Assembly: GCA_042571645.1 (NCBI GenBank)
Contig: JBHPFW010000002.1
Location: forward strand, 3,456 to 67,455
DNA length: 64,000 nucleotides
Reading direction: 5' to 3'
Source of the DNA: Nanobdellota archaeon
Lineage (GTDB): Archaea; Nanobdellota; Nanobdellia; Woesearchaeales; JBHPFW01
Positions 801-16,869 of this stretch are shown piece after piece. Position numbers and translations under genes: made by a program. The notes under the pieces were generated by a model. The model was not told where the DNA came from, did not search any database, and worked only from the letters and a program-made list of their open reading frames with translations. The number at the start of each line of letters is the position of its first letter. The first letter of the stretch is position 1.

Positions 801-2105
801 TTACAAATGACTTCTGACATCACTACACTCAGAAATCTCTCCTTTCAGATTTGTAGCCATTAATTCCTTGACTTTCTCAGGATTGTTAGGATACTGACCA
901 AGCAACCAAGCTAGCTTGATAAATGCAGTTTCAGTTAGCATATCTTCTCCTGGAATTACACCTGCTTTGAATATTTCAATTGCATCAGTGTATACATGAG
1001 AATGAACTCTTCCAAAGATGCATTGAGAAGTCATTGTCATAACACATTTATTTTTATTCAGAGTTTTAAGAGCTTCAAGATTTTTTAGATTAGGTTTGCA
1101 TAAATCATTTGGTGCTCCAACTGCAATATGGCCTAAGCCTGTTCCTTCTATTATTAGGCCTTTGTAATTTTTATAAAAAAGAATTTCCTCTTCATTTAAA
1201 TCAGGATGCGCTCTTAGTATGCCGACTTTCTCTTCAAATTTATTTTTTATCTCAACTTTATTTCCTTTTCCTTTTTTAGTATAATCTTTTTTATTAAAAG
1301 TAATTTTTTTTGTTTTATAATCAACACTTGCAATAGGCGTATCATTTACTGCCTTGAATGCATCTCTTCTAGAAGTGTGAAGTTTTCTTGTTTTTGTTCC
1401 AGGCAAAATAGCACATTTCAAATCCTCTTCTGTCTCATGCATGCATATTGCGACTCCAGCAAAATCTGTTTTTCCAATAAATTCTGCTGCGCAAATTAAA
1501 TTCATTCCAGCATCACTGCTGCCGCGATCAGAACTTCTTTGTGATCCAACAATTATTACAGGAATATTTAGACTTTCAATAATGAATGATAATGCTGCAG
1601 ATGTGGTTGTCATTGTATCTGTGCCATGGGTTAAAATAATCCCATCAACACCAGAGTCAATTTCCTCTTTAATTGCTTTAGCCATTACAGGATAATGTGA
1701 AAATCTCATGTCTTCAGAAAACATATTGGAAATAAGGCGGCTTTTAATATTAGCTATTTCTGCTAATTCAGGAAACATATTGATGATTTCTTCAGGAGAA
1801 AACATTGCCACAACACCACCAGTCTTATAATCAGCCTTACTAGCAATTGTACCGCCAGTATGCAATATTGCAATTGTTGGAAGTTTTGGATTATTAGCTA
1901 TCTTTCCAGGTTTAGATTCTTTTTCTGCCTTGACTTTTTCAATAACTTTCATTCCTTTAACCTTCTTTTTTTCAATTCCAATATTATAGCCAGAATCCAT
2001 TTTAATAACTACAGAATCAGTTTCCTCATTAGGCATTAATATGCCTGTAACTGTTTCCTTGTCAGTCTTAATCTCAACTTTATCTCCCGGGTTTGCATCA
2101 GCCAT
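801..2105 (-). CDS. gatD: Glu-tRNA(Gln) amidotransferase subunit D
   Basis: N-terminal KLDSGYNIG-type domain (KMDSGYNIG), asparaginase motifs TGGTIAS and HGTDT, GSQRSSDRGSSD; adjacent to gatE. Confidence 0.96.
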   Translation of the reverse strand: MADANPGDKVEIKTDKETVTGILMPNEETDSVVIKMDSGYNIGIEKKKVKGMKVIEKVKAEKESKPGKIANNPKLPTIAILHTGGTIASKADYKTGGVVAMFSPEEIINMFPELAEIANIKSRLISNMFSEDMRFSHYPVMAKAIKEEIDSGVDGIILTHGTDTMTTTSAALSFIIESLNIPVIIVGSQRSSDRGSSDAGMNLICAAEFIGKTDFAGVAICMHETEEDLKCAILPGTKTRKLHTSRRDAFKAVNDTPIASVDYKTKKITFNKKDYTKKGKGNKVEIKNKFEEKVGILRAHPDLNEEEILFYKNYKGLIIEGTGLGHIAVGAPNDLCKPNLKNLEALKTLNKNKCVMTMTSQCIFGRVHSHVYTDAIEIFKAGVIPGEDMLTETAFIKLAWLLGQYPNNPEKVKELMATNLKGEISECSDVRSHL

Positions 2106-2241
2106 ATTAAGCCTTGTTTTTGCTGTATTTATTAAATTTTGGGTCTAGACACTCTAAAACTAAATACTACTTAAAAGTAGTTTCAAAGGGAAAGATTTAA
2201 ATAACAGCGGTATTTAAAGGCTTTCTGGGGGCATTGCGCAA

Positions 2242-3675
2242 ATGAGTCAAGATATCGTAAGTTTAGTTAAAGAAGTTAAAGTTGATGAATTTAATAATTT
2301 CTCAGATCCTACTGTAGCTTATTATTTAGCAAGCAATCTGCAAGGACAACCAAGTGGAACAAATTACAGCACTTTAATTCAAGTATGCGGTTCTGATAAA
2401 GAAACCACTGCAAGAGGAGTTCTATATGAAATGCATAAAAAAGGGATGGTTGCCTATGATCTTCAGCAACATCCACAAGCATTAAGATCTTCAAAAGAAG
2501 CAGAAGAAATATGGGATTATTTTTGTTATGAGATGCATGAAAAGATTTTAAGAAATGATTCCATTGCGAGTGTTGTAAGTGCAGCAAAGCCTGGAAAAGA
2601 AAAACTACAAACAGTCCAAGCTCTCTCTTGGTTGTCTGATAATGGCTGGGTTGATTATGGAGCTTCAAACTCTGAATTTTACTGTCGAAATATTTGTGGC
2701 ACAAAAGGAGTTGTAAACAGAGACAATTTTCTTTCTGTTTTGGAAGGATTAGTTAAAACTGCATCTGATAGATACGCAACAATAAGCATACAAAGCAATT
2801 TGGGTAATGGTAAGATATATGTTTCAAAAGGCAGGATAGCAGCAATAGATTTCGAACATAAACAAGGAAATGGAAAATTTCAAGACAGTGAAGTACTTTC
2901 TAAAATCCTGCCATACACAAAACCTATAAAATACGAAATTGATTTTATCTCAGAAATGCCAGATGATAAATACAGAATGTTGGATGGAGAAATCAATTCT
3001 TTTATTGTATCAGCACGTGAGAGTTTAGGTGAGATTCTCGATGGAAATGCTACTGCAGAATATTTAGGTGAATTTTCGATAATATCAGACAAAACAGAAA
3101 ATCTAAAGAACAAAAATTGTGTTATGGCCTTAGAAAAACTCAGAGAAAGTGGATCTATAATGGGAGTTGTTAAAAGAATTGAGGCCTTAAGAGAACCTAA
3201 GAAAATAGAACAGTCCAAAAAACTTTTCGTGAGGGCTATTTCCAGACTTTTTGAACTTGGCTACATCAGTTATGACATCTCAAATCCGAATTATTATATT
3301 GGAGATTCTTATAGTTGTTCAGGAGATTTAACCAAATGGGATTTTCTCAATTGTTTAGAAAAGATGGTTTCTGGAACTCCAGATAAAACTGCTATTATAG
3401 AAGTACACAGCGGATTCACAAAAGGAGAAATATATGTTTCAAAAGGCAATGTTGTTGGGGTTAATGCTACTACAATAACTGGTGATAAACTTGAAGATGT
3501 TGAGGCCCTATCTCAATTCTTAGCTTCTGCAGATGAACTAGATTATAAACTAAAACTCGCAGCAAAACTCCCTGATGAATCAGTTAGAATTAACTCTGAA
3601 CTGCCTGCTTTCATAGCAGAGGTTAAAACTCAAGCAAGAACAGCCACAGAACAAATTTCTGGTTCTGCAAGATAA
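2242..3675 (+). CDS. Hypothetical protein with two DUF4388-like repeats
   Basis: Two internal repeats (ATISIQSNLGNGKIYVSKGRIAAI / AIIEVHSGFTKGEIYVSKGNVVGV) resemble the DUF4388 G-x-I-Y-x-x-x-G pattern. Confidence 0.55.
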   Translation: MSQDIVSLVKEVKVDEFNNFSDPTVAYYLASNLQGQPSGTNYSTLIQVCGSDKETTARGVLYEMHKKGMVAYDLQQHPQALRSSKEAEEIWDYFCYEMHEKILRNDSIASVVSAAKPGKEKLQTVQALSWLSDNGWVDYGASNSEFYCRNICGTKGVVNRDNFLSVLEGLVKTASDRYATISIQSNLGNGKIYVSKGRIAAIDFEHKQGNGKFQDSEVLSKILPYTKPIKYEIDFISEMPDDKYRMLDGEINSFIVSARESLGEILDGNATAEYLGEFSIISDKTENLKNKNCVMALEKLRESGSIMGVVKRIEALREPKKIEQSKKLFVRAISRLFELGYISYDISNPNYYIGDSYSCSGDLTKWDFLNCLEKMVSGTPDKTAIIEVHSGFTKGEIYVSKGNVVGVNATTITGDKLEDVEALSQFLASADELDYKLKLAAKLPDESVRINSELPAFIAEVKTQARTATEQISGSAR

Positions 3676-4505: not shown

Positions 4506-7178
4506 TTATCCAAAGTATAGTGGCTTTTCTTTCTTGAATTCTTCCCCACGAGCAGATTTCATGGTATTTTTAAGATTTTTATATGCATCTTCGATATCTT
4601 TTGTTACAGAAGGCCCCACTTCTTTTAATGCAGATTCAAAATCTCCCATTGTGACTTGTTTTGCAGACATATCTTTTCTAAGTGCATTGATTGCAGCTTC
4701 TCTGCATACTGCCTCTATATCTGCGCCAACATATCCTTCTGTTTTTTTAGCTAATTCATCAACAGAAACATCTTTAATAGGCATTTCACCTATGTGAACA
4801 TTAAATACTTCTTTTCTTGTTTTTTCATCAGGAATTCCAATAGGAATTAATCTGTCAAATCTTCCTGGGCGGAGTAAAGCAGTATCTATTATGTCTGGTC
4901 TGTTAGTTGCAGCTATAACAACAACATCCTGCATCTCTTCTAAGCCGTCTATTTCTGTGAGCATCTGGTTAACTACTCTTTCTGTGACTTTGCTGTCAGA
5001 AGTTGCTCCACGTCTTGGTGCAATAGAATCAATTTCATCAAAGAATACAATACTAGGAGAAACTTGTCTTGCTTTTTCAAATATTTTTCTTACAGCTTTT
5101 TCTGATTCACCAACCCATTTGCTCAACATTTCCGGGCCTTTAACAAGAATGAAATTAGCTTGTGATTCATTTGCTACTGCTTTAGCTAGTAGTGTTTTTC
5201 CTGTTCCTGGCGGCCCATAAAGTAATATGCCTTTTGGCGGTTTTACACCAAGTCTTGAGAATGCTTCTGGATTTTTCAATGGCCATTCAACAGCTTCTTT
5301 AAGATTTTGCTTAGCATCTTCTAAGCCTCCAACATCATCCCAGCTTAGTTTTGGAATCTCAACAAGCACTTCTCTCATTGCAGAAGGCCTAACAACCTTC
5401 AATGCATCAAAAAAATCTTTTTTTGCGATAGTGAGTTTCTCAAGCATCTCTCTTGATATTGATTCTTCTGATTCCAATTTTAATTCAGGCAATACTCTTC
5501 TCAACACGATCATTGCTGCTTCTTTTGCTAAACTGGAAAGATCTGCTCCTACAAAACCATAAGTGACCTCAGAGATTTCTTTTAGTATTATTTCCTTTAC
5601 AATTGTTGAGATTTTATCGCTAATGTTCTTTTCATCAACAAGCTCCTTTAATTTATCCTTGACTGGGTAATTAAGTTCTCCCCCATTAAGTTCAACTTGA
5701 CCTTCTTCTTTTATTATGGAGTTCGATCTTATTGTGTTTGTTATGTCTTCTGATATCTTTTCAATGCATTTGCTCAAGAAATCTTGTTTGCTGCTATTAA
5801 CACCTTTTGGTAACAAGGCCTCAAGATAAGTAGTGATTTCTTTTTGTGTTCCTTCAAGATGGTTATCTTGAGGTTTGTGTTTTTTTAGAACAAGCTCAAT
5901 CAGTTTTGTACTATCAACTTGCTGAAGTAAATCAGAAATTTGTTTTTTTATTTCATCTTCTTTTAACCGCGGATCTATGGATGAAGGGTCCCTGTTTATA
6001 GGCATATTTCTCGTATGAATTTTTAGTATCTTTAGTCTGCCTTCTGTTCTTGGAACGCCAATATCAATTTCTCTGTCAAATCTTCCAGGCCGTCTTAATG
6101 CTGGATCTAAAAGATTTGGTACATTTGATGCTGCAATAACTACAACTTTTCCTCTGCTTTTTAATCCATCCATCAATGCAAGTAATTGCGCAACAACTCT
6201 TCTTTCAACTTCTCCTTTAACTTCTTCTCTTTTGATTGCAATAGCATCTATTTCATCGATGAATATTATTGAAGGTGCATTCTTTTCAGCATCCTCAAAA
6301 ATCTTTCTTAAATTCTCTTCAGACTGACCATAATATTTACTCATTATTTCAGGACCATTAATCACAACAAAATTAGAGTTAGTTTCAGTTGCAACTGCTT
6401 TAGCAAGAAGAGTTTTTCCAGTACCTGGCGGACCATGCAGTAATACTCCTTTTGGTGCGTCTATTCCTAATCTTTCAAATATCTCAGGATGTTTTAAAGG
6501 CAGTTCAACCATTTCTCTGACCTTTTTAATTTCCTCATCTAACCCGCCAATATCTTCATAGCTGACATCGGGAAGAGCAGATTCCTCTTTTACTTCAGTT
6601 GCTTCTGGTTTGAAAATAACTTCTGTAACTTCTGTAACTATAACTGATTGTTTAGGCTCAGCATCAACTACTATAAACTTCATCTCACCAAACCCGAAGT
6701 TCATTATGTTGTCATCTAACATATTAAATACATCATCAAAAAAGGGATTTCCGCTAGTTGTGGTTCTTCTTCTCTTTGAACCACCTAAACTCACTATATC
6801 TCCTTTAATTAAAGCTCTGCCTAATAAGCCTTGTTTGAAAAGAGATGGAGGTGCTTTGATAAAAACTCCTTTTTTAGCAGGTGCTATTGTGATTTTCTTT
6901 GCTTCCTTAACTTCTGCCCTTTTTATCTTTACTATCTCACCAATACCTGTTTTAGCATTTCTTCTTATAACTCCATCCATCCTTATTATGTTAAGACCTA
7001 TATCTCCTGGATATGCTCTGTCTACCATTGCTACAGTAGGTCTCTCGCCAGTAATCTCAACAATGTCTCCCGGCCTTACATCTATGTTCTGCATAATAGA
7101 AGTATCTATCCTTACAATTCCTTTGTTGACATCATCCTGTATTGCTTCAGCAACTTTAAGTGAGATTTCTTTTGTCAT
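4506..7178 (-). CDS. cdc48: CDC48/VCP family AAA+ ATPase with a ~130-aa insertion in D1; likely start MTKEISL at 7178
   Basis: N domain plus two AAA modules (GPPGTGKT twice, DEIDAI/DEIDSI, RPGRFDR). Confidence 0.96.
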
Positions 7179-7278
7179 TTTTTCAATATGATCTTCTCTG
7201 CCTGATTTATATACATACAATATAAGCTATTAAAAATATTTCGGTAGTTTAAGCCAATAAAACAGAATTTGCAATGAT

Positions 7279-7692
7279 TTATTGTTTCTTAGGGCTTATT
7301 TTTGGCATTGGTACAGGGGGAGGCAATCCTAGCTTATCGCTCATGATTAATGACTGTATATTACACCTTACAAGGATTGCATTAAGCAAGGGCAGAGAAT
7401 CTGCTTTGTTAATATTCTTGTTTTTCTTCCAATGATCTAATATTTTTTTGGCATCCTCAGGCTTTTCTAAAGCCAAAATATTGCCTTTTATCTCAATTTC
7501 GCCTATTTTAGGCTCATAAATTGATTTATAAGTGAAATCATACTTTATTCCTTCGTCTTTTGTGTTACCAAAGCTTAATTTAGCTTTTGAAGCATCAGTT
7601 ATTATCACATTATTATTTATCTTGATATTCCCTCTTGAAGGAGTTTTCTTTTCTGCTGTTATCTTAGTTATATTGACACCCAATATTGCCAT
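7279..7692 (-). CDS. Conserved archaeal hypothetical protein, possibly SecB-like fold
   Basis: 137-aa ORF with host-like composition; fold guess from the beta-rich pattern only. Confidence 0.5.
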   Translation of the reverse strand: MAILGVNITKITAEKKTPSRGNIKINNNVIITDASKAKLSFGNTKDEGIKYDFTYKSIYEPKIGEIEIKGNILALEKPEDAKKILDHWKKNKNINKADSLPLLNAILVRCNIQSLIMSDKLGLPPPVPMPKISPKKQ

Positions 7693-7777
7693 TTTATACC
7701 ACCCTTAAATTGAATATTATAGATATTTGATGGTTTTTAGAAGTACTGGACAGTATATAAATGTTTTGTTGAGGTTT

Positions 7778-9004
7778 TTAAGTGTCCCTTGATTTTACAG
7801 CAGTAATCCTTGGCTTTTCTAGATCATACAAATCTGTGCTAAAGACATAAGCACCTATATTTAGAAATATTAGTGATTGGTGTGTTTTTATTTCTGGCAG
7901 AAAAACTTTATCTCGAAATATATCTATCGGATCTAATGTGCATCCTCTTATATGATGGCTTTTTTTCTCTTTATTCTCTTCAGCCATTATTTTTGTTGGA
8001 ATAACCGGAAGTTCTATACCTGCCAGCATAGTATCAACACTAGAGATATATGTTGAAGTATTTAATATTATTATCTTATTCTCTTCATTGCCTTTTTTTT
8101 CTACAAGAACTTTTGTTAACAACACAAAAGCATCTGCTGCAATGCTTCTGCCGGGTTCAATTATTACTGTGGTTTCGGGGAAGTCTCTTTTTATTTGTGT
8201 TAATTCTGTTTCCCAAGCAGAATAAATTTCTTTAATAGACGGCGCTTCTTTAATATAAGTAGAAGGGAATCCTCCGCCGAGATCAAGATATTGAAGATCA
8301 ATATCTCTTTTTTTTAATTCAACTAGAAAGACACTTATCTCTTCCAGATTCTCCTGCCAGCTATTAATGTCTATGTTTTGTGTTCTGAGGTGATTGTGAA
8401 TTCCTTTTAGGTTAATGTGCGGCATCCATTCAAGCTCTTCCAAAGCAGTTTTGAACTCATCAAGATTCAGGCCTAAATCAATTGAAGTTCCATAAGCAGA
8501 ATTTTTTGGCACAATACTTGTTTTTACTCTAAGCAAAACATTTGCCTTTGTTTTTACTTTTTCTGCACACCTATTTAGAAGTTTAAGTTGCTCTAATGAT
8601 TCAATAACAATAAAACCAATTTTTTCCTCTGCAACCTTTGTTGCTTCTTTTTCAGACATTGCAGGATTATTGTATATTACATCACCATATTCTTTGAATG
8701 CGATTATTTTTGCAAGCTCGTTTAATGAGCTAACAACAAATGTGCATTTATTTTTTGAGATAATATCCAATACAGATTTTGTTCTGTTGGTCTTAACAGG
8801 ATAAGCTATAATTGTCTCTTCCCCGAACTGGGTTCTGAATTTGTCTATATTCTGCTTTAGCTTGTTTGGGCTGAAAATAAATAATGGCTCATCAATTGTT
8901 TTGCCTAACTCATGCAGATTTAAGCTGTCAAATTCAAGCTCATTATGGCTGTTAAATGCCAATAAGGACTCTGGATTTTCTATTATATTAAGTGCTGATT
9001 CCAT
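7778..9004 (-). CDS. PLP-dependent fold-type III decarboxylase (Orn/DAP/Arg decarboxylase family); likely start MESALN at 9004
   Basis: YPVKTN (PLP lysine), LDLGGGF, IEPGRSI, GAY. The ORF-track start at 9070 lies inside a repeat element. Confidence 0.85.
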   Translation of the reverse strand: MESALNIIENPESLLAFNSHNELEFDSLNLHELGKTIDEPLFIFSPNKLKQNIDKFRTQFGEETIIAYPVKTNRTKSVLDIISKNKCTFVVSSLNELAKIIAFKEYGDVIYNNPAMSEKEATKVAEEKIGFIVIESLEQLKLLNRCAEKVKTKANVLLRVKTSIVPKNSAYGTSIDLGLNLDEFKTALEELEWMPHINLKGIHNHLRTQNIDINSWQENLEEISVFLVELKKRDIDLQYLDLGGGFPSTYIKEAPSIKEIYSAWETELTQIKRDFPETTVIIEPGRSIAADAFVLLTKVLVEKKGNEENKIIILNTSTYISSVDTMLAGIELPVIPTKIMAEENKEKKSHHIRGCTLDPIDIFRDKVFLPEIKTHQSLIFLNIGAYVFSTDLYDLEKPRITAVKSRDT

Positions 9005-9060
9005 AGGTTTAGGGGGTTCTAAGGCAGTATATAAAGGTTTGGGGGTTTTAATAAAAGGAA

Positions 9061-9169
9061 TTAAAGCCACCAGTGCCTAGAGTGCCTTTGTTTTTAGTCT
9101 GGTTTTGCATCCCCCTCATGATTGCGAGATGCGACAACACTTGCTTGGCACTCGCCCTGGTGGCTTTAA
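9061..9169 (+). repeat. Dispersed structured intergenic element, family A, copy 1
   Basis: 13-bp terminal inverted repeat TTAAAGCCACCAG/CTGGTGGCTTTAA; core GCCTAGAGTGC...CATGATTGCGAGATGC...TTGGCACTCGCCCTGG shared with five other loci. Confidence 0.92.
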
Positions 9170-9213
9170 TATTTACACAAATCTTATATAAAGAAAATAA
9201 TTAAGAATTAATC

Positions 9214-9438
9214 ATGCCAAAAAAGAACCCTACAAAAAGAAAGAAAAAAGCAGCCAAGAAAAAGATTGCTAAACTGAAGAAAATTATTAAGAAAAGAATA
9301 TCTAAAAAGGAAAAAATCCGCCAAAAGAAATTAAAAAAGAAATTCATAATATGGCTGGTTGTGGTTAAGGGCATTATACTAATAGCTGTACTTATTCTGT
9401 TTTATCTGTTTGTGAGAAAATTGATGGGCCTTCTTTGA
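9214..9438 (+). CDS. Small lysine-rich protein with a C-terminal transmembrane helix
   Basis: Highly basic N-terminus followed by one hydrophobic segment; TATA-like TTATATAAA upstream. Confidence 0.6.
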   Translation: MPKKNPTKRKKKAAKKKIAKLKKIIKKRISKKEKIRQKKLKKKFIIWLVVVKGIILIAVLILFYLFVRKLMGLL

Positions 9439-12708: not shown

Positions 12709-12786
12709 TGCTTTTGGAATTAAAAGACGATGTCGTCATCGTCTTTTAATAAAACTTATAAACCCTATTTCAACCCCTTCTTTAAA

Positions 12787-13212
12787 ATGGACAAGAAATT
12801 TGAGTATCTAGAACATACTGCAGATAAGAAATTTAGAGCATTTGGCAGTACACTAGAAGAAGCTTTCAAAAACTCAGGTTTAGCAATGTTCAATATACTT
12901 GTGAATCCAGAAGACGTCAAGCCTGAAATCAAGCACAAACTAAAGGTTAACACAAGAAAATTAGAATCTTTGCTTTATGATTTCTTAGAAGAGCTCTTAA
13001 TACTGTTAGATACAGATGGATTTGTACTTTCTAGCATAGACAAAATAGAAATAAAAGAAAAAGACGGTATTTTTGATCTGGTTTGTGAATTTTCAGGAGA
13101 CTCCTACAAAAACTACGAAGTTTCAGGAAACATAAAATCCATTACTTACAATGATATGAAAATAGAAAAGGTTAATAATAATTATGAAATCACAGCAGTA
13201 GTTGATATTTAG
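12787..13212 (+). CDS. Archease (RtcB cofactor); likely start MDKKFEY
   Basis: EYLEHTAD, GSTLEEAF, IKSITY, C-terminal VVDI; immediately upstream of rtcB. Confidence 0.94.
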   Translation: MDKKFEYLEHTADKKFRAFGSTLEEAFKNSGLAMFNILVNPEDVKPEIKHKLKVNTRKLESLLYDFLEELLILLDTDGFVLSSIDKIEIKEKDGIFDLVCEFSGDSYKNYEVSGNIKSITYNDMKIEKVNNNYEITAVVDI

Positions 13213-13220
13213 GTGGTAAA

Positions 13221-14648
13221 ATGACAGAATACAAAAAAGTTAATGATAATGAATTTGTAATTGAGAAAAAAGGCAAGATGAAAGTTCCTGTTAGGATATT
13301 TGCTTCTGAAAAGATTATGGAAAAACTTAAAGACGATAAAAGTCTTCAACAAGGCAGTAATGTTGCACAAATGCCTGGTATTTACAAGCATGCTTTAATG
13401 ATGCCTGATGCTCACCAAGGCTATGGGTTTTCAATTGGTGGAGTGGCAGCGTTTGATGCAAAAGAAGGATGCATCACTCCTGGAGGAATAGGCTTTGATA
13501 TAAATTGTGGAGTAAAATTTCTGATAACTAACTTAACAAAAGAACAGGTAGAGCCAAAAATTAAGGAATTGCTTGAAGCGATTTATGCCAGAGTGAAAGT
13601 TGGTGTTGGTGGAGAGTCAAAAATAAGATTAGAAGATGATGAATTAGATGCAGTTCTAAAAACTGGTGCAAAATGGACATTAGAAAAAGGCTATGCAACT
13701 AAGGATGATCTTGAGCATTGTGAGGAAAACGGCACAATGGAACAAGCAGATCCTTCAAAAGTAAGTCAAAAAGCAAAGAAGCGTGGCAGAAAACAACTCG
13801 GAACACTTGGAGCAGGAAATCATTTCATGGAAATTCAAGTTGTGGATGAGATTTTTGATGAGAAAATTGCTAAAGCATTTGGCATAGAGAAAAAAGGACA
13901 AATTGGTGTGATGATTCATTGCGGTTCTCGTGGATTGGGACATCAGGTTTGCAGTGATTATATCAGAAGAATGGAAGATGAACAACCTGAATTAATGGCG
14001 AGTCTGCCAGAAAAAGATTTGATCTATGCAAAAGCTGGTACAAAATTAGCAAATGATTATTTTGGAGCAATGTGCAGTGCAGCAAATTTTGCCTGGGCTA
14101 ATCGCCAAGTAATTGCTTTTGAAGTTAGAAATGCTTTCAAAGAAGTTTTTGGTGATTCTGAACTCAAACATGTTTATGATGTTGCTCATAATATTGCTAA
14201 ATTAGAAAAACATATGATTGATGGCGAGGAAAAAGAGGTGTATTTGCACAGAAAAGGTGCGACTAGAGCATTCCCTCCAGGACATCCAGATGTTCCAGAA
14301 GCTTATAGAGCTGTTGGCCAGCCAATAATTTTGCCAGGCAGCATGGGTACTGCTTCTTATATCTTAGTTGGCACACAAAAAGCAATGGAAGAAACCTTTG
14401 GCTCAACAGCTCATGGTGCAGGCAGAGTAATGTCAAGACATGCAGCAATTAATCAGTTCAGAGGAGAAGATATCAAGAAACAACTTGAAGCTAAAAACAT
14501 TACAGTTAAAGCAGGCTCGTGGAAAGGTTTATCAGAAGAAGCACCTCAGGTGTATAAAAAAATTGAGGATGTTATTCAAGTAACAGTTGATGCAGGTCTT
14601 GCAGGGCTGGTTGCTCGTGTTGTTCCGCTAGGCGTCATCAAAGGCTGA
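13221..14648 (+). CDS. rtcB: tRNA-splicing RNA ligase RtcB
   Basis: MPDAHQGYG, GFDINCG, GTLGAGNHF, HCGSRG, HNIAK, HRKGATR, HGAGR, EEAP. Confidence 0.97.
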   Translation: MTEYKKVNDNEFVIEKKGKMKVPVRIFASEKIMEKLKDDKSLQQGSNVAQMPGIYKHALMMPDAHQGYGFSIGGVAAFDAKEGCITPGGIGFDINCGVKFLITNLTKEQVEPKIKELLEAIYARVKVGVGGESKIRLEDDELDAVLKTGAKWTLEKGYATKDDLEHCEENGTMEQADPSKVSQKAKKRGRKQLGTLGAGNHFMEIQVVDEIFDEKIAKAFGIEKKGQIGVMIHCGSRGLGHQVCSDYIRRMEDEQPELMASLPEKDLIYAKAGTKLANDYFGAMCSAANFAWANRQVIAFEVRNAFKEVFGDSELKHVYDVAHNIAKLEKHMIDGEEKEVYLHRKGATRAFPPGHPDVPEAYRAVGQPIILPGSMGTASYILVGTQKAMEETFGSTAHGAGRVMSRHAAINQFRGEDIKKQLEAKNITVKAGSWKGLSEEAPQVYKKIEDVIQVTVDAGLAGLVARVVPLGVIKG

Positions 14649-16039
14649 AGCTCTTCCTTAGCGGATTTCATCAAATATAGAAAATTTTCTCCCTTTTTTG
14701 TTATATGGTAAATAATATTAACATCGCTCTTGATTTTATGTAAAAAACCTCTTTTTGTATTATCGCTTAAATATTTCTGAGCAGTCTTAATTGAAATGTT
14801 GTGTTTTTTAGCAAATTCAGATATTCTTCTATTATTAACTGATTTCAATCTTTCATAAAGAATCTTGAAATAGTAATTTGACAGTACATATTTCAGAAGC
14901 TTTCTTCTATTGTCTTTATGTTCTGCAAAAGCATTATTTTCTATTAGCCAAATACAGACTTCAAAATTAGTCGAAAGATGAATTTTAATATCTTGAGAAG
15001 AAGAATTAATATTAAGTAGTTTTAATAATTTCCTGATGCTTGGGTGTATTGATAAATTACCTTCTGATATGAAAATATCTAAGCTTGAATTATTAGCAAT
15101 GACAGTCCCATCCCCTAAGAGATATTTTATTATGAACCCTGTAGAGAATTCTCTTAGGTAGTTATTTAATTTTTCTTGTTTTTCAAGATGTGTTCTTATT
15201 TTTGTTAGTATTGTTATCATGATTTGTCCTAAAGTAGTATTAGGAATATACATGCTATAAATTATATCTAAGAGATTCTTATTTTTAATAAGTGATATGC
15301 TGGTTTCATTGATATCTAAAAGCTTGGCAAATTCTTTTTTACGTGATTCTAAACACTCATTAGTTATGTCAGGATTGTGAAATATCATCCCTTTCCAAGA
15401 GGATTCTGGTATACCAAATAACTTGGAAATATCCATGAATAAGTTTATTTGACTTAAGAACTTCATTGTAAAATCAAGTCTAACTCCATTTTTAGAAGAC
15501 TCTGCTTGCATTAATCCGAAAAATTCACCAAGTTTTTCATCAATCGTAACAAATCTCTTTAATTCTATTGATTTTGCATTTCCTCCTTTCCCAGAACAAT
15601 ACCAAGCTTTCAGCCAATCTTCATCATTTTTGTTAAAAAGCTCAACCATTATAGTTTTATTACATTTAGTTTTTCTAGGAATCAGTGCTAATAAATCAAG
15701 ATAGTCTCCAATAATTATTCTATTAGTTCTTATATTATCAACTAAAGAGATGGATATATCTAAAATATCGCCTGTTTTCAAATTAGCCTTTTCCACAAAA
15801 TCTTTAGGAACAGCTCTTCTGACTTGTAAATTGTCTCTGCTTTTAGGCAAACTGGGAATGCTCAGATAAGTTTGATATTTGTGACTATCTTTTTGAATAT
15901 TGAGTTTAACATAATTATCTGGTTTGGCTCCGATTTTTCTTATAGAACTTGTTGGAATAGTAAATCTAAATTTATCACGATCAGGAAATACCTTGATTTT
16001 TATAAACTCTTTTTTGATTATTTTTTGATTAATTTCCAT
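14576..16039 (-). CDS. Free-standing LAGLIDADG-family endonuclease-like protein
   Basis: Two LAGLIDADG-like helices (LGEFFGLMQAESSK; GFIIKYLLGDGTV), two N-terminal AbrB-like repeats, C-terminal HTH; overlaps the rtcB 3' end antisense by 73 nt. Confidence 0.75.
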   Translation of the reverse strand: MEINQKIIKKEFIKIKVFPDRDKFRFTIPTSSIRKIGAKPDNYVKLNIQKDSHKYQTYLSIPSLPKSRDNLQVRRAVPKDFVEKANLKTGDILDISISLVDNIRTNRIIIGDYLDLLALIPRKTKCNKTIMVELFNKNDEDWLKAWYCSGKGGNAKSIELKRFVTIDEKLGEFFGLMQAESSKNGVRLDFTMKFLSQINLFMDISKLFGIPESSWKGMIFHNPDITNECLESRKKEFAKLLDINETSISLIKNKNLLDIIYSMYIPNTTLGQIMITILTKIRTHLEKQEKLNNYLREFSTGFIIKYLLGDGTVIANNSSLDIFISEGNLSIHPSIRKLLKLLNINSSSQDIKIHLSTNFEVCIWLIENNAFAEHKDNRRKLLKYVLSNYYFKILYERLKSVNNRRISEFAKKHNISIKTAQKYLSDNTKRGFLHKIKSDVNIIYHITKKGENFLYLMKSAKEELQPLMTPSGTTRATSPARPASTVT

Positions 16040-16216
16040 TTTTAATCAACTTATTTATTCCTGAAACTTTATTGAATGATTTGTGAAAAAGGAGTTTCGT
16101 AAATTATAATCTAAAAGTTGAGGTTTTTGGTAGACTGATTAAAAAGGGACAAGATCTTTAAATATCTCACGCCCATAAATGTCCACTGGGTAATCAAAAA
16201 AGTAGGGATTTATAAA
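14592..16216 (-). mobile_element. Putative homing-endonuclease insertion carrying a replacement rtcB 3' end; boundaries approximate
   Basis: Bounded by two versions of the rtcB tail, both starting GCAGG (14592 and 16217). Confidence 0.7.
16172..16190 (-). promoter_or_regulatory. GGACATTT/TCCA(C/G)TGG motif upstream of a TATA box, copy 1
   Basis: Minus strand CCCAGTGGACATTTATGGG, about 12 nt before TATTTAAA; similar motifs at 23310 and 36121. Confidence 0.55.
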
Positions 16217-16273
16217 GCAGGCATTGGCAATATAGTTGCAAGAATGAAGCCTTTGGGCGTTATTAAGGGTTGA
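16217..16273 (+). pseudogene. Displaced duplicate of the rtcB 3' terminus
   Basis: Translates AGIGNIVARMKPLGVIKG*; 12/18 aa identical to the in-frame tail AGLAGLVARVVPLGVIKG*. Confidence 0.88.
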
Positions 16274-16291
16274 ATTCTTAGCAGTTTTTAA

Positions 16292-16399
16292 AAGACTGCC
16301 AGGGCGAGTGCCTAACACATATTATTTCCTTTCGCAATCATGACAAATAGATGCAATAACATTCAGAAACTCCTTAGCACTCTGGGCGCTGGCAGTCTT
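16292..16399 (-). repeat. Family A structured element, copy 2
   Basis: Terminal stem AAGACTGCCAG/CTGGCAGTCTT; same conserved core on the minus strand. Confidence 0.92.
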
Positions 16400-16407
16400 A
16401 TTTATAC

Positions 16408-16869
16408 TTAGACCAACAACAAAATAATTATAAGAAATATCAAAACACCATTTAGAATTAATTCTTCTCTGCCTGCATTGAATAGCCAGCCAAATTCTTT
16501 TGTTTTGAACATCTCGGGTTCATATATGCTTAAGTCATCCAGCAAGTAATGGCTGTAATAAGCTAAAGCAATTATCAAAGAAGCAACAGGATTGAATATA
16601 AAAACAACACCAACAATAATACTAACAACTATAAAAGCAATAGGATTATGAAGCAAGGTTTCATGATGTTCAATATGATATACTGTTTTGTGCCACATCT
16701 TTTTTAGATCAAATTTCTTGTGAAATACCAAATTGCTAATTACATGATCAAAATCCATAAATATGGCTAAAATCGCCACTAAGAAAGCTATATGCAAGCC
16801 TAACAAACCTCTTTCATAAGCTATTACTCCAAGCAATAATGCCAGTAAAAAATGACTTTGAGGGAACAT
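16408..16869 (-). CDS. Membrane-bound metal-dependent hydrolase (YdjM/DUF457-like); likely start MFPQSH
   Basis: SH...DFDH...LLH...SHYLLD pattern with hydrophobic helices. Confidence 0.65.
   Translation of the reverse strand: MFPQSHFLLALLLGVIAYERGLLGLHIAFLVAILAIFMDFDHVISNLVFHKKFDLKKMWHKTVYHIEHHETLLHNPIAFIVVSIIVGVVFIFNPVASLIIALAYYSHYLLDDLSIYEPEMFKTKEFGWLFNAGREELILNGVLIFLIIILLLV

Follow-up and report, generated by a model that had tools for sequence, protein, structure and literature searches.

Introns or inteins are believed to be the main shield under which homing endonucleases enter conserved coding sequence. How, then, can an endonuclease gene occupy the very end of rtcB, the gene of a tRNA-splicing ligase, with neither form of shelter? 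The question is raised by a 64,000-nucleotide (nt) stretch of DNA, hereafter the window, from a Nanoarchaeota/Woesearchaeota-type chromosome contig of a Nanobdellota archaeon (contig JBHPFW010000002.1, assembly GCA_042571645.1). Here rtcB ends in frame with the tail AGLAGLVARVVPLGVIKG, an antisense open reading frame (ORF) of 487 amino acids (aa) runs into this end from the other side, and a second rtcB tail, AGIGNIVARMKPLGVIKG, lies beyond the ORF. A first reading, made from the sequence alone, had proposed that the ORF is a free-standing LAGLIDADG gene inserted in the rtcB 3' end and supplying a recoded replacement tail. We arrive at the same core: the element is most probably a homing-endonuclease cassette that carries a replacement rtcB tail, and its ORF is referred to below as the homing endonuclease gene (HEG). 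Positions are in window numbering (Table 1), and comparison loci are labelled L003, L032, L036, L037, L045, L054 and so on.

The anatomy on which the sequence-only reading rested was reproduced throughout, including the coordinates of both tails. The two tails share 12 of 18 aa and 33 of 57 nt, nine of the 12 common residues use different codons, and the G+C content is 57.9% in the in-frame tail versus 43.9% in the displaced one (58 and 44% as first given). The displaced tail has no start of its own and is preceded by in-frame stops. The last 24 codons and the stop of the HEG (73 nt) overlap the in-frame tail in antisense. The rtcB gene, which is present in a single copy in its own genome assembly, is complete: the protein matches the Pfam RtcB model with E = 3e-171, colinearly over model positions 2-426 of 426 and at full length to its last residue. 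No intein domain was found in the window RtcB with Pfam, and Rfam and tRNA searches of positions 14400-16700 returned nothing above noise for intron-like RNA, non-coding RNA or tRNA. An intein- or intron-borne endonuclease was ruled out on these grounds, the ORF being antisense, RtcB colinear with its model and an Rfam intron match absent from 14400-16700; the description of the element as intron-less and intein-less thus stood.

The similarity of the displaced tail to rtcB is no chance match. A 45-position hidden Markov model (HMM) of RtcB C-termini found it at E = 4e-8 among 892 stop-to-stop pieces, and positions 16212-16280 align by blastn to the rtcB 3' ends of several relatives (E 1e-7 to 7e-10). 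In nucleotide sequence it is 75% identical to the rtcB end of HEG-less L003, 74% to that of L054, 79% to the displaced tail of L032 and 58% to the in-frame tail of its own locus; compared with HEG-less relatives, it reaches 74-75% identity versus 58-61% for the in-frame tail. The same polarity is seen in L032 and L036, two HEG-bearing alleles that belong to the endonuclease subclade of the window, where the displaced tails are likewise closer to HEG-less alleles. At the protein level the displaced tail was the better match to 94 of the 118 closest RtcBs with an aligned end. The tail of HEG-less relatives is of the AGIG(N/K)(I/L)VA...PLGVIKG type and not of the AGLAGL type. The closest RtcB among 5.8 billion proteins, 74% identical, is encoded in an archease-rtcB locus (L054) without insert, and the rtcB body of the window clusters with HEG-less relatives of the same order in a tree built on body residues 290-443. 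Relatives without the ORF, which the sequence-only reading had singled out as decisive, therefore carry the displaced type of tail.

The foreign segment is longer than first proposed. That a replacement tail is carried by the element was supported, whereas its length, given as 18 codons, is actually about 30. Immediately 5' of the 18-codon tail AGLAGLVARVVPLGVIKG lies the in-frame sequence YKKIEDVIQVTVD. The 13 codons Y445-D457 are 85 and 74% identical in nucleotide sequence to the in-frame tails of L032 and L036, respectively, versus 46-67% to HEG-less alleles, and residues K447-D458 match the 118 closest RtcBs at a mean of 4.0 of 12 positions versus 10 of 12 for L032. Because the in-frame segment YKKIEDVIQV is common only to the window and two other cassette alleles of the same endonuclease subclade, the cassette-borne replacement appears from these alignments to comprise about 30 codons and to start right after Y445-K446, near 14556-14559. 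In L032 and L036 the first codons of the displaced copy are exactly TAC AAG GAC (Y-K-D); the displaced copy of the window has lost its 5' 13 codons and shows a gap of ~38 nt relative to L032. A consensus segment that would join the window rtcB body to the displaced tail in a reconstructed cassette-free allele reads YKDVDEVVKVSH.

The stretch of rtcB coding for YKD(V/I)DEVV is among the most conserved in the 3' region of the gene. The residue after Y-K is D in 22 of 28 HEG-less alleles versus three of 15 HEG-bearing alleles (Fisher p = 3e-4, uncorrected for phylogeny); among 120 RtcBs listed it is D in 114, N in five and K in one, the window's own. This pattern fits a recognition or cleavage site at the Y-K-D position that would be destroyed in carriers.

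We accordingly picture a selfish cassette of roughly 1.6 kb (about 14556-16200) that would occupy the 3' end of the single-copy rtcB and consist of the recoded last ~30 codons plus stop, a free-standing HEG on the opposite strand that runs into this new tail, and the 5' flank of the HEG. The native tail would have been pushed downstream, to survive as a startless fragment. The enzyme would cleave cassette-free rtcB in the conserved Y-K-D-(V/I)-D-E-V-V stretch, near the Y-K-D codons, with the cut expected in or near TACAAGGAYGTTGATGARGT. The break would then be repaired from the cassette-bearing allele, with homology on the left provided by the rtcB body and on the right by the displaced tail. 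With its recoded sequence (YKK-IEDVI...), the new tail would keep RtcB functional and at the same time remove the target, rendering the carrier immune. Overall this would amount to intron-less, intein-less homing of the mitochondrial 'mORF' type. Whether the enzyme is at present active on the proposed YKD-region target we regard as an even bet.

Is the product of the HEG an endonuclease? With the window protein alone, all Pfam matches are sub-threshold (HTH_45, E = 5e-5; MazE/AbrB, E = 0.005; LAGLIDADG_3, E = 0.019). We identified 28 full-length homologues (437-495 aa, 33-61% identity), all from metagenome-assembled genomes (MAGs) and metagenomes of the Nanoarchaeota/Woesearchaeota type, and aligned them with the window protein (alignment A1, 29 sequences). 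All 29 sequences have E180 and D310, one acidic residue for each LAGLIDADG helix, and the motifs GEFFGLMQAES and GF(I/V)xKxLLGDG are near-invariant. In position the two acidic residues match the catalytic residues of single-chain LAGLIDADG enzymes. Searched member by member (n = 29), LAGLIDADG_3 was matched by 20 sequences at E <= 0.1 (best 3.8e-7), HTH_45 by 14, MazE/AbrB by nine, LAGLIDADG_WhiA by three and Hom_end by two.

The AlphaFold2 model of the full-length protein, built with alignment A1, has a pLDDT of 89.3 and a pTM of 0.85, with only residues 472-487 below 50. Foldseek searches with the whole protein gave mixed weak matches owing to its three domains, which cleared up when the core (residues 160-392; pLDDT 89.8) was modelled alone: the top 45 PDB matches of the core model are almost all LAGLIDADG proteins (probability 0.8-1.0, TM on target up to 0.62). 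They include I-DmoI (TM on target 0.54-0.62, probability 1.0), PI-SceI, the TliVMA intein endonuclease, I-Tsp061I, WhiA, I-OnuI and I-LtrI. The N-terminal third resembles AbrB-type swapped-hairpin proteins and the C-terminus resembles Sso10a/MarR-type winged helices. Based on motif conservation, the Pfam matches of the members and the AlphaFold2 and Foldseek results, the HEG product is predicted to be a three-domain (AbrB-like, two LAGLIDADG repeats, winged helix-turn-helix (wHTH)) single-chain LAGLIDADG enzyme with a pseudo-dimeric alpha-beta-beta-alpha-beta-beta-alpha fold. The two LAGLIDADG-like helices seen at first in the ORF were thus borne out by the fold and the acidic residues, although a description limited to them understated a protein of three domains. 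Upstream of the HEG, positions 16061-16125 are 79% identical to the corresponding flank of L032, and conserved blocks extend to about 16192 in the pairwise alignment; this flank is probably the promoter and leader of the HEG.

Table 1. Coordinates of rtcB, the candidate cassette, the endonuclease domains and a related gene pair
Feature	Position	Strand	Remarks
rtcB	13221-14648	+	475 aa; ends AGLAGLVARVVPLGVIKG* (14592-14648)
Native rtcB body (M1 to about Y445)	13221..14555	+	Pfam RtcB match
Archease	12730-13212		directly upstream of rtcB
In-frame replacement tail, K446-G475 plus stop	14556..14648	+	KKIEDVIQVTVDAGLAGLVARVVPLGVIKG*; probably cassette-borne; left boundary approximate
Antisense LAGLIDADG HEG	14576..16039	-	487 aa
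HEG 5' flank	16040..16192	-	probable cassette part; conserved with L032
Displaced native rtcB tail	16217..16273	+	AGIGNIVARMKPLGVIKG*; pseudogene fragment, startless, in-frame stops upstream
AbrB/SpoVT-like beta domain	about residues 1-150 of HEG protein
Double LAGLIDADG core	residues 160-392 of HEG protein (14864-15562)		motifs GEFFGLMQAES 171-181, GFIIKYLLGDG 301-311
Winged helix	residues 391-468 of HEG protein
Disordered read-through tail	residues 472-487 of HEG protein		antisense to rtcB tail
Sister-family gene	L053:1165-2403	+	further loci L056, L057, L058
Aminoacyl-tRNA synthetase gene next to sister-family gene	L053:2381-3538	-

Loci encoding homologues were gathered from species genomes, metagenomes and assemblies (NCBI, JGI, ENA, Logan) and comprise 15 distinct loci including the window, all from Nanoarchaeota/Woesearchaeota. 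As determined by tblastn, the HEG is convergent with rtcB in all 15 and overlaps the rtcB stop codon by 11-130 nt, except for one locus with a 3-nt gap; it is absent from all 29 rtcB loci of order-level relatives. Scanning the DNA beyond the HEG start with the tail HMM revealed clear displaced rtcB tails in five of the 15 loci (the L032 group, L036, L037, L045 and the window) and a marginal one in L039. The displaced tail of the L032 group, SYKDVDEVVKVSHDAGIGNLVVKVVPLGVIKG, is 32 aa long (E = 4e-17) and that of L036 30 aa (E = 8e-16). At least three separate assemblies or records (L032, L033/L040, L034) show the L032 architecture. L051 was dropped as an independent locus, being 99.97% identical to L045. 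The G+C-rich in-frame tail is specific to the window locus and was rejected as a family trait; in the other loci the G+C fraction is 0.35-0.44 in the tail versus 0.33-0.57 in the body.

Some of these loci show further peculiarities. The decayed displaced tail of L045 (L045:5835-5966, corresponding to L051:2477-2608) reads ...KIYFKKIQDSVKGANVSIPVTRLVPIGVLKG, in which 'KKIQD' resembles the in-frame 'KKIED' of the window, L032 and L036; as evidence of a former cassette-borne tail this motif was judged too short for interpretation. In L032, the closest cassette-bearing relative, rtcB (6399-9350, minus strand) encodes a protein of 983 aa with a Pfam Intein_splicing match between two RtcB halves. 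With a cassette and an intein in the same rtcB, one gene hosts two kinds of selfish element. RtcB had been noted as an intein host from the start, as is also documented by the NCBIfam family RtcB_rel_intein. The rtcB matches in L038 and L039 are broken into several high-scoring segment pairs, which suggests inteins in these copies as well. In L060, from another order, a 152-aa ORF (1309-1767, plus strand) consists of an AbrB-like N-terminus fused directly to a winged helix, without the LAGLIDADG core, and overlaps the stop of rtcB (1757-3247, minus strand) by 11 nt. It would be a degenerate relic or else a DNA-binding remnant that has been domesticated. Surviving alone in this nuclease-less derivative, the AbrB-like and wHTH domains might also act as regulators of the convergent host transcript. 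In the window itself, positions 16292-16400 (plus strand), just 3' of the displaced tail, form a G+C-rich long-range helix, AAGACUGCCAGGGCGAGUGC ... GCACUCUGGGCGCUGGCAGUCUU, enclosing ~60 nt, with a minimum free energy z-score of -2.3 and neither an Rfam family nor a tRNA call. This may be the terminator or 3' structure that rtcB originally had, or else a small RNA.

The family counts at least 29 members and is rare. Among 401 sampled genomes of the order a single one carries a full-length member, and a sample of 401 genomes drawn from the phylum added no other, with weak partial matches elsewhere. HEG-bearing alleles are scattered on the rtcB tree; nine changes are needed to explain their distribution, of which well-supported branches force at least five. 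Since the endonuclease tree has three clades that parallel three rtcB clades, the spread of the HEG seems confined to fairly close relatives, as expected of homology-dependent homing. Recent lateral movement is shown most clearly by L037 and L045, because the synonymous divergence (dS) of their HEGs, 0.31, is ten-fold below that of the adjacent rtcB genes, which are saturated (dS about 3.2). Over L037:3700-5020, HEG and promoter are 85-98% identical to L045 at the nucleotide level, flanking rtcB and tails are 56-80% identical, and the breakpoints inside the cassette are sharp. The pattern points to a recent event, gene conversion or transfer, between two alleles each of which had the cassette beforehand. 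In its fixed insertion site, sporadic occurrence and lateral transfer the HEG behaves like a mobile selfish gene.

Several observations weigh against a mobile cassette with its own replacement tail. At L037 and L045 the relation of the tails is reversed, with the in-frame tail more similar to HEG-less relatives than the decayed displaced tail, and the block exchanged between these two loci comprises HEG and promoter only, neither tail included; 'tail plus HEG' is therefore not always the unit of exchange, and the polarity of the window is not general. An empty allele of the window's own population was not found in the search of 5.8 billion proteins, in which the RtcB of L054 came nearest. On the protein side, the window sequence scores 15.7 bits against LAGLIDADG_3 (PF14528), under the gathering cut-off of 22.5, and the family sequence profile searched against PDB chains found Sso10a wHTH and AbrB and no LAGLIDADG protein. 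Three endonuclease clades mirror three rtcB clades, a pattern that long vertical residence with frequent loss, or even domestication, would also fit. Finally, nuclease activity, the target site and immunity through the recoded tail are predictions.

The mirrored clades are one of several points that speak for a LAGLIDADG-derived DNA-binding regulator, domesticated in the manner of WhiA and acting on rtcB or on the convergent transcript, with the displaced tail left over as a fossil from a single insertion long ago. The protein has two accessory DNA-binding domains typical of transcription factors, its gene is at the same locus every time and evolves under purifying selection (dN/dS = 0.18 between L037 and L045), WhiA is among the fold matches, and at this site the 152-aa derivative, reduced to the two DNA-binding domains, has kept an open frame. 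Yet WhiA is not known to possess the catalytic acidic residues and, as far as is known, is conserved throughout its clade. Unlike WhiA, with which it shares a LAGLIDADG scaffold combined with a helix-turn-helix (fold match 3hyj, TM 0.59), the HEG product retains both E180 and D310 in all 29 members, and its gene is found in about 1% or fewer of related genomes. The ~99% that lack it all have rtcB, which means that the HEG is not needed for rtcB function. The low synonymous divergence of the HEG relative to neighbouring rtcB in one pair also disagrees with domestication, and the good preservation of displaced tails in several separate lineages suggests that insertion has happened repeatedly and fairly recently. 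We therefore consider a domesticated regulator unlikely.

Less likely still is a cassette docked at or just after the rtcB stop, in which case the in-frame tail would be essentially native and the downstream tail a hitch-hiking fossil from an earlier host. Such docking would agree with the tails of L037 and L045, with the exclusion of the in-frame tail from the block recently transferred between them, with the likeness of the displaced tails of the window and L032 to each other, and with a sister family, described below, that overlaps the stop codon of a synthetase gene without a detectable duplicated tail. It conflicts with the opposite polarity in the window, L032 and L036, where the displaced tails are the better match to HEG-less alleles, with the derived in-frame YKKIEDVI signature of these three loci, which is absent from the other 119 RtcBs listed, and with the displaced copies of L032 and L036, whose start exactly at the Y-K-D codons is as expected of a junction inside the gene. 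An assembly artefact, i.e., two strains or species joined at the conserved rtcB 3' end with an apparent tail duplication as the result, is the least credible explanation and in our view highly improbable. The genome is a 55-contig MAG of 82% completeness, and the window protein occurs on one contig only. However, independent NCBI, JGI, ENA and Logan assemblies likewise show rtcB followed by an in-frame tail, an antisense ORF and a displaced tail, and a chimera would not create an intact 1.4-kb ORF of a conserved family exactly between two tail copies. Fourteen more independent loci, from other assemblies, show this architecture, which speaks against the assembly join that the sequence-only reading had kept in view; its other reservation, that the ORF might lack a LAGLIDADG fold, is answered by the core model and the two invariant motif acids. 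The homing-endonuclease cassette with a replacement tail is thus the interpretation that we carry forward.

The sister LAGLIDADG family consists of 33 members of about 370-413 aa that match the rtcB-associated profile at E = 5e-18. In all four loci examined its gene is convergent with a class-Ib aminoacyl-tRNA synthetase (aaRS) gene (Pfam tRNA-synt_1b, TrpRS/TyrRS-like), and the 3' ends overlap by 9-23 nt. Inspection of three-frame translations by eye revealed no displaced aaRS tail in the sister-family loci. Speculatively, DPANN archaea may harbour a 'stop-codon-docked' class of LAGLIDADG elements, in which related families would each park convergently on the end of a different essential RNA or translation gene (rtcB, class-Ib aaRS), with addiction by overlap replacing the intron or intein solution. 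Imprecise deletion of such an element would be lethal, because the HEG ORF overlaps, or even supplies, the end of the host gene.

The closest known analogue of the rtcB cassette is the C-terminal replacement by mitochondrial mORFs, first described for atp6 of Allomyces macrogynus and also known from atp6, atp9, cox2 and nad3 of Glomus sp., atp9 of Rhizopus and cox2 of Mortierella (PMC3630166). In both systems an endonuclease ORF, mostly LAGLIDADG in the mORFs, sits inside an essential gene, towards its 3' end, without an intron or intein around it (PMC3630166). The host gene is completed by an in-frame C-terminus of foreign origin, and its own C-terminus, displaced downstream, is nearer to relatives than the inserted one. 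The nucleotide identities of native versus inserted tail are 91% versus 64% in Glomus atp6 (PMC3630166) and 75% versus 58% in the window. The systems differ in compartment and gene, as mORFs are organellar and the element described here sits in rtcB on an archaeal chromosome. They also differ in arrangement: mORFs are co-oriented with the host gene and often in phase, whereas the rtcB HEG is antisense, convergent and overlaps the new stop codon. Moreover, the AbrB-like and winged-helix domains of the rtcB HEG are not reported for mORF enzymes.

Other comparisons are more distant. The free-standing Seg and Mob endonucleases of T4-like phages engage in intron-less homing or marker exclusion (PMC2988022, PMC2790892). 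Like the rtcB HEG, they have no self-splicing shelter; they spread by cleaving the endonuclease-less allele with co-conversion of flanking markers, and immunity comes from target sequence differences in the carrier genome, which for the rtcB HEG we infer. They differ in being GIY-YIG or HNH enzymes, in their intergenic position in phage genomes and in not being known to carry a duplicated or replaced gene end. With the archaeal single-chain enzymes I-DmoI and I-Tsp061I and the intein endonucleases PI-SceI and TliVMA the HEG product shares the pseudo-dimeric fold with one acidic residue per LAGLIDADG helix, at sequence identities of 9-15%. Those enzymes, encoded in rRNA introns (I-DmoI, I-Tsp061I) or inteins (PI-SceI, TliVMA), ride in elements that splice out; the rtcB HEG is free-standing, and the disruption that it causes would be solved by a new gene end.

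In the literature searched, we found no report of a free-standing endonuclease at rtcB or of such a LAGLIDADG element in DPANN archaea, nor of a replacement-tail arrangement on an archaeal chromosome. If the cassette is what it most probably is, the family extends gene-end replacement from fungal mitochondria to a third genetic compartment, archaeal chromosomes, and to the ultra-small genomes of DPANN archaea, always at the end of a tRNA-splicing ligase gene. Its members would represent a new LAGLIDADG architecture, with three domains and a natural target that can be predicted, and might be useful in meganuclease engineering. The range from intact to nuclease-deleted copies provides a natural series for study of the endonuclease life cycle, and the family offers a marker of DNA exchange between uncultured Nanoarchaeota lineages.

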